A stretch of DNA of 64,000 nt, from contig OX597820.1 of the NCBI GenBank assembly GCA_951406725.2, positions 39,742,001-39,806,000 of the forward strand, written 5' to 3'. Origin of the DNA: Octopus vulgaris. Lineage: Eukaryota. The position numbers and the translations under genes are program-made. The notes below the pieces were generated by a model. It worked only from the letters and a program-made list of their open reading frames with translations, was not told where the DNA came from and did no database searches. Within the stretch, counting starts at the first letter, position 1; every line of letters starts with the position of its first letter. Below are positions 16,872-46,318 of this stretch, in pieces.

Positions 16872-17300
16872 TACAAACATATATGTACGTACCTACATCT
16901 ACATGTATATATACATGCATATATAAATAAATATACGTAAGTACAGGACGCCACAACAAGACGTAGAAACGGGAAAAACAAAATTTTTTACAAGTACCGG
17001 ACAGGCTACACAAGGAAAAATCCAAATTTTTTACAACAAGAAAAACAAGTACAGGACATGCTACACAAGGAAAAATCCACCGTCATCAGCTGTCGCTAGT
17101 TAACTCAGGCGTGTTTCGAAGGCAAGACAGGACACTCGTTAACTAGGCCTTCCTGCGAGAGAATTAAAATAAAATTCCAAGCAGCGGGGTAAAACGGGTA
17201 AGAACACAAACAGGATGTAACAATAAAACTGCACAATAAAATACAAGATAAAAATACATGTACAAAAAAATACAAGACGAGAAATAAAAAGGGAATACAA
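16872..17300 (-). mobile_element. Non-coding hammerhead-bearing element, copy A (remainder at 14228-14333)
   Basis: Shares gtcctgtact...tagatgtaggta.gtacatatatgt with copies B and C. Its terminal gtatgtatgcatat.ttttatttat lies on the far side of the LINE at 14297-14333. Confidence 0.7.
17076..17146 (-). ncRNA. Predicted non-circularly permuted hammerhead ribozyme, copy A
   Basis: ctagttaac ga GTGT C CTGTC ttg ccttc GAA ACAC gcctga gttaactag c GACAG CTGATGA c ggtgg. GUC site; stems III and I and an extra 9-bp helix pair perfectly. Confidence 0.65.
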
Positions 17301-17371
17301 TATACACTCACACACACGTACACACACACACACACACACACACACACACTCACACACACATATATATATAT

Positions 17372-17640
17372 ACGACGGGCTTCATTCGGTTTCTGTCTAC
17401 CAAATCCACTCACAAGGCTTTGATCTACCCAAGGCTATAGCAGACACTTGCCCAAGGTGCCACGCACATATATATATGTTGAACACACACACACACACAC
17501 ACACACACACACACACACATCACAGGCTTTCACTCAGTTTGTGTCTGCGAAGTTCATTCACAAGGCATTATTCGACCAACATGCCACTATGTGGGACTGA
17601 GTCCAAGACCATGCGGTGGAAAGCAAGCTTCCTAACCACG
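17372..17640 (-). mobile_element. Two decayed SINE heads (family of 51139-51553)
   Basis: cgacgggcttc...tctaccaaatccactcacaaggctttg...cacttgcccaaggtgccacgc, plus a second copy with gtgggactga...accatgcggt. Confidence 0.7.
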
Positions 17641-18286
17641 CCAAAATACAATATTTCAAGTTACATTCATAACATTTTAACTAAAAATAACGATACAGAT
17701 CAATAGGTTATTGCTATCAAGTCATTGTTATAACCTAGAAAGAAAGAAGCAATAAAATACAGCAGTTAATTTTTTTGAATGGTAGCATGAAAATCATACT
17801 TAATTAAAATTAAACTTGCACTGAGGAGAAATATCATTACTTTGGTTATCTATTCTGGTAAAAAAACAAAAACAAAAAAAAGTTAGGCGAGACAAATCTC
17901 AACTTTTAATTAATTGGAATTTGATTTGAAAATTCTATTTAAAAGTAATATTTCTTTATTTGTTATACAATCAGCATTTGAATTAAGAATCCATTTTCGG
18001 TTCCCAGTCAGGATTGGTTAGATTAGAGCAAATTTCTTTTGCTAATAACGCTAATGTTTGACGTCATAGAAAATCATGATGATAAGGTAACGAATAAGTA
18101 CCGAGAACAGAGGTGGTTAGACACTTTCTCCTCCAGCCAATGTAACTTCGCAATAGTTATGTCTTACATGTAATTGGGTGACACTTCTCGGAATAGTGAA
18201 AACAATTGTTTCGTTAATTTTACATTCATAACTATTATTGTTATTGCTGATGTGTGATCACCAACACAGTTCAGTTTCTGCCGATA

Positions 18287-19179
18287 TACGAGGGGGTACT
18301 CGCAAGGAACCGGAATTTTGCAATATCATTTTGTCCACTTAGTTTTATTGGTTTACACTTTTATCGCATTCAAAATATTCTCCGTCTGAAGTAATGCATC
18401 GGTCCATACGCGTTTTCCACTGTTCGAAGCAGTGTTGGACCCCTTGCAAAGTGATACCTTTTAACACGTCCGTCCTTTTTTCTTCACCTCTTCCACATCC
18501 GCAAATTCCATTGCACCGGCTTTCGTTACCAGTGATGACCTTCGAAAAAAGGTCCGGATCAACTTCCAACTGTTCTTTCAGTTGATGACACGCATGCACT
18601 CGTGACTGCTTTCGATCTTCCGTGAGCAAGTGAGGCACAAATTTTGATGCAATTCTTTTCATTTGCAATTCCTCGCTGAAAATTCGTTAGCAGGAGCTCC
18701 AGGTCACACAAGTCATATCAACAAGTTCGTCAATTGTTTGGCGACGGTCATCCAAGATCAGTTCATGAAGTTTCTTGATGTTTTCATTCGTTCGACAGGT
18801 CGACGGTCGCCTCGAACGAAGTTTGTCTTCAAACGACGTGGCCATTCCTAAAGCGTGAAAACTTGTGTTTTGCACCTGGCAGTGTCCATGTAAGCTATTA
18901 GAAGCATGGCAACTGTTTCGGCTGCCGTTTTCCCCAGCAGATAACAGAATTTCACGGAAGCACACTGTTCCTCAGTTTCAGCCACTGCAAAATTCGACGA
19001 ACAGGAGAGAAGCACTGTAAAACAAAGACCCATCACGTTACAGAACGACACGAATCGACAACGCCGGTCGGCAGACTGATACATTAGGCTTTCATCAAGT
19101 TCCTTCTAGCGGCGGAAGATTGACAAACAACGGGCTTGTTCCACAGATAACGTTTCCGGTTACTTTTGGGTACCTCGTA
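18287..19179 (-). mobile_element. Internally deleted mariner element with both TIRs
   Basis: TIRs TACGAGGGGGTACTCGCAAGGAACCGGAA and TTCCGGTTACTTTTGGGTACCTCGTA. Transposase pieces EQCASVKFCYLLGKTAAET, RSRRPST, SKFVPHLLTEDRKQSR, ITGNES and WKTRMDRCITSDGEYFE. Confidence 0.9.
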
Positions 19180-19738
19180 TAAATGATCAAATACATTTCA
19201 ATTATAACCAACCCTATTTTAGATATATTTAAAACATGATACAATGCGCCCTTCAGTATAATTTGACTGAAAACTATTAGGTTGTTATTTTCTAACAAAT
19301 AGAATGACTGCCTAGGATTTTCCTAGTTGATTCGTGTATATTTTCAGGAAAGCATGGGTTGTGAAACCTTTACCTTGTGCTTCACTGTAAATCATTAAAA
19401 AGTGAGGGCTAGAACTATAGAAGATCCCAAATATTACATGTGAGGAAGAGCCAATCATCTCAACGATGCTTGCCCTATAAGACGAAAGAGCTCAAAACCT
19501 ATATTTTCTCCACTTACTAATAGCAGTGAAGTCCTCAACGTAATGAAATATAAACACTATTAAAGAAATAATTTGCACAGGTTTGAATTTGAACGCGCGC
19601 GCACACACATACGCACAAGTGTGTGTACATATCTTTCAATCTCCCTCTCTTTTTCGCTATCTTTCTGTTTGTCTATGTATGTATGTATCTATCTATCTAT
19701 CTATCTATCTATCTATCTATCTATCTATCTATCTATCT

Positions 19739-43720: not shown

Positions 43721-44623
43721 AGGATAACAATATATAAATGGTAAAAAAAAAACCCCCCCCCCAAACAACTATAAAATTACTATAGCAAACATGGTGTCTT
43801 CTCTGGCAGAAACAAACAAGGAAAAAGATCATGGGAAAATACAGCAAGCGACAATGTGAAAGTCAGGAAGAAAAGCAACAAAGCTAACAGTAATGAAAAT
43901 AAAAAACAAAAACAAATCAAAAAGAACTGTTATATGTTCATCATCATCATCATTAACGTCAGCATCATCATTATCATCATGACCAAAAACAAAAACAACA
44001 ACAACAACAGTAGTAGCAGCAGTACAAGCAGCAATAGTACAAATAAAGGTTTTGAAATAGATTGCACATGATGCGCTTTGCCATCACGTTGTGAAGGAGT
44101 GGAATGTAAAGGAGAGTGAAGAACAAAGAGAGAATAAGAATTGTGAGGAGAGAGGGAAAGAGATAGAGAGGGAGAAAGAGAGAGTAAAATAGAAGAGAAA
44201 GGTGAGTGTCAAGTAAAAACAAAAATTAAACAAAGCAAAAAACAACGCAACACACCAATAATTTGAAACGAGTAAGCAAAGAGGAAGAGACATAATATAA
44301 AGAATAGAGGTAGAGAGAAAGAGTGAGAGACAGAGAGAGAAAAAAGATAGATAGATAGATAGATAGATAGATAGGAATAGAAAGAAAGAGTAAAGAGTGA
44401 TGAAGTGATTTGAAAAGATGTTTGTGAATTCTCTGCCTTGATTGACTATCAACAACTGTCTTAATGCATCTAGGACTACACCATATGATGGGTCTTCCTC
44501 CTTTAAGACGAAACAATGTTATTTGAAGGACATTATGCTGCTATTTACAGCAGGAAGAGAAACCATACAGAGATCTCACATCACGATAATGTAGTATCTT
44601 ATTAAATTAAAATACCCTTAAAA

Positions 44624-44823
44624 CCCTTAGCATTTAAACCGGCCATATCTGGTCCAAATATTCTACCTATTTTATGTACAGACTGACCATATTCTGCCCT
44701 CATAACCTACCTTACAATGCCATTCTAAAAGTATTCAATCGCATGGTACAAAGCTTGAAGCTACGAGATAATGCACGAGTGAATGAATAAGCATTACATT
44801 TGACTAATCTGAATGATAAAGGA
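44624..44823. mobile_element. piggyBac-like MITE, decayed
   Basis: Termini cccttagcattt and gaatgataaagga followed by ttaa resemble TTAA-flanked CCCTTTAGCATT TIRs. Confidence 0.5.
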
Positions 44824-45296
44824 TTAAACATACGAGATGGTCAAATTTGGAATGTTTGTGCTCATAGTTCTGCTCATCCGGGATCTGCATACCAAAAATA
44901 TCTTTCATAATATGGCATTAATAACTCTCTTTACTATAGACACAAATCTTGAAATTTTAAAGGGCAGAGCTAGCTGGCTACATCGATCCCAAAATATAGA
45001 CATACTTGATAAATACGTTATTGTATGTTACAAACTTATTTATCAAATCTAATCTTATAATATGTAACAAGTTGCACTCGGTTTGTATTTATAAAGTATT
45101 ATTCATAGATATACTTGTGATGTAAATATTATTTATTGAAAACAAATCTCTTATAATAAATGAATACTAATTCAGAATTTGTTAGAAATATATTAAATAG
45201 ACTGATTTAGCATGCAATAATTTTGATAATTTGGTAAATATTAGTTGATGCAAGTATGTGAATGTGTATATATATATATATATATATATATATAAA

Positions 45297-45515
45297 GTTA
45301 ATCCAAACATGAAAACACAAAACGAAAACGCAACAATGCGAGGACGTGGAACAAGTATAGTGTTATTGGACGCTCAGGAAAGGAAAGAAAGAAGGAGAAT
45401 TTAATGTTTCGAACGGAGTTCTTCGTCAGAAACATAGAAAAAGGAACGGTCCAAGGAAGGGAAGACGGAGAAAGAAAATCGCCAACGATACACACGCGGT
45501 CACATATTGAAAACA
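45297..45515 (-). mobile_element. Penelope-like terminal repeat inside (TA)n, containing a minimal hammerhead (45397-45435)
   Basis: ttt CTGACGA a gaac-tcc-gttc GAAA cattaaa; (TA)n on both sides. Confidence 0.7.
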
Positions 45516-45582
45516 TATATATATATATATATATATATATATATATATATATATATATATATGTATGTATGTATGTATATAT

Positions 45583-46318
45583 AACAGACAAAAAACACAA
45601 CTAGGGGAAACCATCAAAACACAACGTGCGAAAAAAAGGGCGATAGCATGACAGCGGCAAGCAAGACAAAATATGATATACGGATCATTCGCAGTCAATT
45701 GCCTCTTCAGTCGGAGTCTGGAATGTCCACGTAGTTTCGTATACTTATCTCCGATACTACTCAAAACCGTCAGGGTCAGGGACGTAATCGAAAAGCATTA
45801 AGCTTCTGAGCAAGGCAAACAAATGCACATGTACGAAAATAAATAAGTAAACAATAGAAAAGGTCTTTCGACTATCGGACAAGTGGAACATATGAAATAG
45901 AATTAGAAATATACAAGGGGCAAACGCTTTCGGCTATACAAGAAATGGAAAATGATTATACAATTACAACAAAAATAAAAGAAAACAAACAGGATTTTTC
46001 GACTATCAGACAAGTATGGTAAGCTAGAGCAAGGAAAGTGGAGATGGAAAAATCTTAACAGACCGGGCTGCAGGACAGAGCAGAACAGTGCAGAGGCGAC
46101 CGACCACAAAGGCGCCCGACTGAAAAAGGATGACCATGTCTGGGCCGGACAGCGATCACATGGTAGAGGAGGGGAGGAGTTGAAGAGAGCAGTGGGGTTA
46201 AGAAATAGGAGAGAGGAGAAAGAAAACAGAGGGAAAAAGAATGTGAGGGAGGGGAAGAGAGAAAAATCTACAAGATAGGTAAGGGAGGTAAGTACAAGGG
46301 AGGTAAGTAAGAGATAGT
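45583..46318 (-). mobile_element. Divergent non-coding hammerhead-bearing element, copy D
   Basis: Same architecture as B and C on the minus strand: CT-rich tract, T-rich segment, permuted hammerhead, then a TA-rich end. Confidence 0.55.
45695..45760 (-). ncRNA. Predicted non-circularly permuted hammerhead, copy D
   Basis: GTAGT A TCGGAG ataagtatac GAA ACTAC gtggacattccaga CTCCGA CTGAAGA ggcaa. Stems I (6 bp) and III (5 bp) are perfect; stem II pairs poorly. Confidence 0.55.

Follow-up and report, generated by a model that had tools for sequence, protein, structure and literature searches.

Eckert et al. (2023; PMC10085705) described hammerhead ribozymes whose blocks follow one another in a non-circular order, including type SGC, for which cleavage and all four helices were validated (HRIMA-1 and variants), and type CSG, known from two metagenomic sequences. 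In that report, SGC ribozymes were found in metatranscriptomes only, and none was placed in the genome of a known organism except for one GCS candidate. Here we analyze a 64,000-nucleotide (nt) stretch of the Octopus vulgaris genome (assembly GCA_951406725.2, contig OX597820.1, positions 39,742,001 to 39,806,000; hereafter the window), in which a first-pass annotation had noted four copies, A to D, of a hammerhead with scrambled strand order and had suspected that non-circular permutations were already in print. That suspicion was well founded, as the order is that of type SGC. We conclude that the copies are probably monomeric hammerheads of SGC order with a split core, opened between residues A9 and G10.1 and predicted to cleave, which lie near the 3' end of Naiad Penelope-like elements (PLEs) and of short repeats that are likely their relatives. 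Their order, core, four helices and location are established by sequence and covariation.

The octopus copies share with type SGC the S, G, C block order, a full core and a short link between stems I and II, as well as a helix that bridges the distal ends of these two stems through 0-1 nt linkers and into which the 3' strand of stem III runs directly. In SGC-1, judging from its primer-table construct, the 5' strand of stem II and the second strand of this interaction helix lie downstream of CUGAUGA-U, whereas in the octopus form both strands are moved to the 5' end, block C (CUGANGA running directly into a stem II strand) is split, and the bridging helix, here called helix E, is tied to stem III on both strands. 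The published search pattern demands a downstream stem II and a fixed CUGAUGAG or CUGAUGAUG, and limits the spacer that separates stems III and I to ≤15 nt (PMC10085705); these demands are not satisfied by the octopus copies, which such a search would therefore miss. The cyclic order is the same as in type CSG, so that the octopus form can be described as a circular permutation of CSG opened at A9/G10.1; in CSG itself stem II follows CUGANGA without a break, and the opening of the chain lies where stem III meets the interaction helix.

The elements that carry the copies also have described counterparts. Naiad PLEs (Craig et al. 2021, PMC8557442) resemble them in the 3' untranslated region (UTR) site, in targeting (TA)n, and in occurring as partial tandems and as inverted copies truncated at the 5' end, and differ in that window families A-D are putative relatives with no open reading frame (ORF) seen attached. 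Naiads were reported to be without canonical hammerheads, with unexplained 'HHR_core' and 'HHR_half_core' cases that include an octopus family (PMC8557442). Non-LTR retrozymes and PLE minimal hammerheads are likewise PLE-derived, non-coding tandem units with one hammerhead each (PMC4209133), and the retrozyme unit lengths of 51-972 bp (bioRxiv 10.64898/2026.07.22.740005) overlap those found here; they differ in that their hammerheads are of type I and their stem III is short and palindromic (PMC4209133; bioRxiv 10.64898/2026.07.22.740005), and type I models only were used in the 2026 preprint. In searches of the literature outside subscription journals, we found no non-circular hammerheads placed in animal genomes or Naiads, and passages of PMC13725137 and PMC10162972 add nothing on this subject or on a break at A9/G10.1.

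Stem II and the opening of the core

A scan of the window for a cleavage site followed by a GAAA-like block and CUGANGA, with stems I and III, returns exactly four copies. In 60 block-wise dinucleotide shuffles of the window the version with GAAA gave 0 matches as compared to 3 real ones, and the GNNA version gave a mean of 0.017 as compared to 4. The rescan reproduces the positions and cleavage sites given to copies A-D by the first-pass annotation (Table 1), and inspection and pattern scanning bear out its stem I, stem III and core sequences. Its motif limits need correction on both strands: each motif starts 6-16 nt further 5', as the stem II partner is upstream. Copy C does have GUUA in place of GAAA, which represents decay, GAAA being found in the family C majority. 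No match in the window is obtained when a downstream stem II without an inserted base is demanded, a tRNA search of the window found none, and among the 150 of 198 Rfam matches listed for the window there is no hammerhead, the listed matches being driven by microsatellites only. Pseudoknot-free folding of the four copies is unable to display the proposed structure.

Stem II had been drawn from the bases that follow CUGANGA, an assignment that we reject. In nearly every intact lineage the 5-6 bases before GAAA are complementary to a segment that starts with G and lies 20-27 nt upstream of the cleavage site. The two partners were compared in a representative set, in which 148 matches were reduced to 133 unique sequences and 41 clusters, 8 of which were dropped as truncated or chance matches to leave 33. 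In this set, the upstream strand forms 4.24 of 5 Watson-Crick pairs with its cognate partner as compared to 2.82 with non-cognate partners (p≤0.0005), whereas the downstream strand forms 2.06 and 2.08, respectively (p=0.59); when G-U pairs are allowed, the downstream strand has a small cognate excess (2.97 as compared to 2.61, p=0.007). Covariation was examined in an alignment of 15 rows, hand-picked for similar spacing and with stems mostly intact. Upstream stem II is paired in 97.3% of cells with 29 double changes, exceeds 500 of 500 shuffles, and falls to 27-45% in slid registers; the downstream helix is paired in 44% of cells, a chance level that 83 of 500 shuffles reach. All three stems covary, stem II through its upstream partner (97% of cells), and stems I (92%) and III (91%) with counts that are partly a product of match selection. 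G10.1 comes from the upstream strand in 14 of the 15 rows, and across the genome 1,646 matches (440 in the control), including whole families, lack the downstream G that a downstream stem II needs.

The hammerhead core, comprising CUGANGA, GAAA, NUH and the G10.1-C11.1 pair, is found in full. Because stem II pairs upstream, G10.1-C11.1 is built from the 5' end of the RNA and the chain opens between A9 and G10.1, a wiring unlike that of published SGC ribozymes; the upstream partner also removes the weak stem II that had been considered the weak point of the motif. PLE hammerheads usually carry an extra base at the A9/G10.1 position (PMC4209133). A splice-acceptor reading of the base preceding G10.1 was dropped, as the AG is not conserved.

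Helix E and the second junction

From the 5' end, the chain passes through the stem II strand starting with G10.1, one strand of helix E, and stem III, NUH and stem I; after a link follow stem II, GAAA and stem III, the other strand of helix E, and finally stem I and CUGANGA at the 3' end. The extra helix that the first-pass annotation had seen beside the core proves to be real and cognate-specific: helix E covaries at 7 of 8 pairs, with 67% of cells paired in the 15 rows, a figure that partly reflects misaligned rows. The linkers measure 0-1 nt from stem II to E, 0-1 nt from E to stem I, and a few nt from stem I to stem II, and stems I, II and E are predicted to form a second three-way junction. 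Helix E is the equivalent of the stem I-II interaction helix of Eckert et al., as it has the same junction and short linkers as the experimentally validated SGC-1. The earlier proposal of pseudoknotted helices with a short stem I-II link is in agreement with this architecture once stem II is reassigned. A four-way junction, in which an outer helix would pair the flanks on either side of the opening, was also considered but not supported (p=0.88; p=0.61-0.98 across five window settings).

Helix E and stem III are joined on both strands, in several lineages through a loop of kink-turn type. Tandem GA/GA is present at the kink-turn positions in 21 of 22 copies of family E, 16 of 18 of A, 9 of 12 of D and 11 of 14 of G; family K scores 0 of 2 in this count, though one K copy passes a stricter test, which 9 of the 33 representatives pass. 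Families D, E and G agree with the kink-turn consensus (a 3-nt bulge with tandem G-A/A-G), while the bulge of family A has 4 nt; the kink-turn is a predicted fold assigned from this consensus.

Repeat families and the Naiad link

The motif is carried by thousands of small mobile repeats in this genome, and the earlier view of an animal repeat family is borne out in that every copy belongs to one. First-look candidates in the 2.8-Gb genome number 1,052 for family A, 3,845 for B, 5,341 for C and 292 for D, which are not copy numbers. A loose SGC-order pattern finds 6,617 matches as compared to 265 for a reversed control (a few places are counted twice), and a variant with a pyrimidine preceding CUGA is at the control level (134 as compared to 162). 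The circular order C, G, S of hammerhead types I-III is not that of these repeats: across 548,581 bases, most of them selected because they hold such repeats, SGC has 65 matches and CGS, GSC and SCG have 0, and the same scan found no type I hammerhead in the units. A scan of viral contigs gave two chance matches, both without CUGANGA. Family A-like sequence (window 16990-17260) occurs in the contig sets of three organisms, which show presence only, and is therefore not restricted to this assembly.

The units are non-coding and flanked by (TA)n. Their 3' end is fixed and they are truncated to variable extents at the 5' end; they also occur as partial tandems of 750-930 nt and in inverted orientation. 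Such features are hallmarks of Penelope-like elements. The short repeats are likely non-autonomous relatives of Naiad PLEs. The window copy of family A is 95-97% identical to other genomic copies, and in tandem loci its unit measures ~760 nt. Of 30 copies per family selected by BLAST, 23 are fully intact in A, 28 in B, 5 in C and 4 in D. Core divergence is below that of the rest of the unit in B (0.003 and 0.051) and D (0.053 and 0.118). Family C (L092-L120) contains groups of copies with identical damaged GAAA variants, a query-biased sample, which look as if ribozyme-dead subfamilies had been amplified.

A direct connection to an ORF is seen for family E only, in which the motif is located in the 3' UTR of a Naiad. 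Its motif is that of the published Naiad_Obim/Naiad_Ovul 3' end, and its stem I resembles that of family B; the Naiad assignment is based on the match to the published consensus and on reverse transcriptase (RT) motifs. Exact pattern matches to family E number 328 in the genome and 0 in the control. The motif lies on the sense strand downstream of a decayed Naiad RT in 5 of 30 RT-selected loci and in the antisense orientation in none, while among more distant RT loci a strict scan finds it in 1 of 20, with two further matches due to chance, about five more degenerate ones seen by eye, and again none antisense. Other families gave no upstream ORF, the coding-like sequence of L154 being without a Pfam match. 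An intact 781-residue PLE with a C-terminal endonuclease was tried as carrier and rejected, as its 3' UTR has neither the motif nor any specific sequence in common with the units; a single antisense family C copy in a PLE locus (L234) is taken, without proof, as a separate insertion.

The last 330-600 nt of 52 published Naiad consensus sequences were read by eye (PMC8557442 supplement). The fold with upstream stem II is clear in eight (three Acropora, Clytia-3, Movir-2, Pomphorhynchus and two Octopus) and partial in two (Beroe and Euprymna), and on this reading appears to occur in Naiads of cnidarians, an acanthocephalan and cephalopods. Type CSG is seen in clean form in five nematode families and one spider family is SGC with long linkers, with three more partial; the remaining consensus 3' ends show no such motif within the 330-600 nt viewed.

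Several observations concern these elements. GIY-YIG matches (L237, L242 and others) define a young PLE family with many intact 781-residue ORFs, a C-terminal GIY-YIG and a cysteine linker, which is presumably Neptune-like; it is a candidate trans partner of the young units, with no link seen. L154, L163, L175 and L176 represent additional lineages with stems similar to those of the Pomphorhynchus Naiad motif, and in L154 decayed coding-like sequence lies upstream of the motif. Family E (L122-L150) has a strong splice-donor-like site 5 nt after CUGAUGA and an acceptor-like site 7 nt before G10.1, sites that other families do not share. Bivalve, hemichordate and two Clytia Naiads without this hammerhead have in common another conserved, structured-looking motif just past the stop codon, which may represent a different or unknown ribozyme. 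A putative twister-like motif is present in Naiad-1_Movir and Naiad-4_Chem.

The 5' ends of truncated copies were located by eye in A/B-type copies that start in a TA run ≤28 nt from stem II; the first 100 of 607 overlapping matches represent 26 distinct loci. The copy begins at or ≤8 nt 3' of the predicted cut in 22 of these loci (exactly at it in only one of them) and upstream in four (p=5e-8 as compared to a uniform spread; 3e-5 or 0.006 without TA-microhomology positions). This clustering is an indirect hint that would fit reverse transcription of cleaved RNA.

Mechanism and alternative explanations

In the proposed mechanism, the RNA would fold into a closed cage and the usual G8/G12 chemistry would cut 3' of H17. 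Cuts in successive units would free a monomer (for the short repeats, one of about 750-930 nt), which would be copied into (TA)n by a Penelope-type reverse transcriptase/GIY-YIG endonuclease, yielding the partial tandems, inversions and 5' truncations observed.

The same helices could also be satisfied by a strand-swapped dimer, in which each unit forms a long E-III hairpin, its two tails complete the core of the second unit, and cutting needs two copies in a tandem transcript. We regard this as unlikely. Metazoan PLE hammerheads do act as dimers (PMC4209133), partial tandems are present (a direct repeat is near 31 of 145 matches), and the coral Naiad consensus, read by eye, has a stem III extendable to 13 bp and no 5' linker to E, which would be hard to close alone; most copies are nevertheless single, the conserved kink-turn supplies the sharp bend that a monomer requires, and the published SGC-1, which has the same junction, cleaves during transcription (PMC10085705). 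Much less probable is an ordinary type SGC ribozyme, in which stem II is formed by the bases after CUGANGA-N and the upstream strand acts as a switch for inhibition or timing. The lack of cognate specificity in downstream pairing speaks against it even though families A, B, C and F allow 2-5 pairs with the downstream strand, most of them G-U, and a G stands two bases past A9 in 14 of 17 lineages (the search pattern biases this number); downstream pairing is impossible in family G and in the Naiads of the coral, hydrozoan and acanthocephalan, all of which keep the first upstream G-C. We give the lowest probability, a very small one, to a hammerhead-derived binding or packaging signal for a PLE protein with little or no catalysis. 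That figure takes into account that Poseidon PLE insertion in vitro does not need hammerhead cleavage (PMC11167929); no RNA-seq reads end at the Poseidon PLE cut (PMC11167929), and groups of family C copies share a damaged GAAA. Against a mere signal, CUGANGA, GAAA, NUH and G10.1-C11.1 are kept where stems are wholly replaced and across phyla, a retention that is partly pattern-selected in this genome and unselected in the BLAST-found and published sets, and truncation junctions cluster just 3' of the cut.

Several results weigh against the monomeric split-core hammerhead that we favor. Stems I and III were used to select the matches, which makes their pairing counts partly circular. The kink-turn is missing in families B, C, F, H and M, and by a geometric estimate ring closure in the monomer by a helix E of 7-10 bp looks tight. 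We found no precedent for a chain break at A9/G10.1 in the literature outside subscription journals. Intact copies are few in family D and in family C, whose copies were chosen by likeness to the dead copy C; in C, sampled in the same way, the core is more diverged than the flanks (0.090 as compared to 0.055), and family A has no excess of core conservation (0.027 as compared to 0.027). No attached ORF was found in the flanks of families A-D, and the Naiad ORFs of this genome are decayed and old while family A is young. Finally, the junction pile-up is in part TA microhomology and stands without a control from other parts of the element; family E junctions show no significant excess (3 of 9, p=0.30).

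It is reasonably likely that a natural split-core hammerhead, caged by a second junction and a kink-turn, is the long-missed Naiad ribozyme across several phyla and that, together with the nematode CSG forms, non-circular hammerheads represent a common, circularly permuting genomic lineage. If so, these ribozymes would shift from rare metatranscriptome contigs to thousands of copies in animal genomes, the assumption that CUGANGA runs directly into stem II would fall, and the apparent absence of hammerheads from Naiads would be explained. The fold may also answer the geometry puzzle raised by Eckert et al., that of an interaction helix joined directly to stem III. The role of the ribozyme in PLE mobilization would become testable with a 70-nt RNA, and the fold would offer an engineering scaffold with both ends at the core.

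Table 1. Coordinates of the predicted ribozymes, their parts and the repeat units in the window.
Feature	Position	Strand	Detail
Copy A predicted ribozyme, intact	17083..17152	-	Pattern scan and pairing; H17 17131
Copy A upstream stem II strand	17152-17147	-	6/6 pairs Watson-Crick
Copy A helix E	17146-17138 with 17104-17096	-	Pairing
Copy A tandem GA pairs, kink-turn-like	17137-17136 and 17106-17105	-	4-nt bulge
Copy A stem I	17130-17126 with 17094-17090	-	Stem III precedes H17
Copy A stem II 3' strand	17123-17118	-	
Copy A GAAA	17117-17114	-	
Copy A CUGAUGA	17089-17083	-	
Copy B predicted ribozyme, near intact	25565..25642	+	H17 25591
Copy B upstream stem II strand	25565-25569	+	5 pairs, one G-U
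Copy B stem II 3' strand	25601-25605	+	
Copy B GAAA	25606-25609	+	
Copy B CUGAAGA	25636-25642	+	
Copy C predicted ribozyme, decayed	41828..41904	+	H17 41854; one stem II mismatch
Copy C GUUA in place of GAAA	41869-41872	+	
Copy C CUGAAGA	41898-41904	+	
Copy D predicted ribozyme, decayed	45704..45776	-	H17 45755; G10.1 changed; stem II gone on both strands
Copy D kink-turn GA pairs			Retained; family D majority pairs 5/5 in stem II
Copy D GAAA	45738-45735	-	
Copy D CUGAAGA	45710-45704	-	
Family A repeat, 5'-truncated	16871..17303	-	Likely non-autonomous Penelope-like; microsatellite-flanked
Family B unit with copy B	25030..25870	+	Limits approximate
Family C unit with copy C	41300..42150	+	Limits approximate
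Family D unit with copy D, older	45515..46290	-	71-84% identity to relatives; limits approximate

Other features of the window adjoin these units. A 789-residue open frame (14310-16679, plus strand), by eye a LINE-type reverse transcriptase, adjoins copy A. On the minus strand, 250 nt downstream of copy D, a block of canonical order (CUGACGA-N-stem II-GAAA, 45429-45407) is without a usable stem I or III and probably derives by decay from a type I minimal hammerhead belonging to another repeat; ends related to it are present in the flanks of L065 and L066. The 5' part of the family D unit (45860-46010, minus strand) contains, upstream of the ribozyme, a short motif that ends in CGAAA and is repeated three times at intervals; these repeats are retained in other family D copies. 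The 5' end of this unit is abutted by what is, by eye, a Tc1/mariner-like transposase remnant (46200-46600, plus strand).

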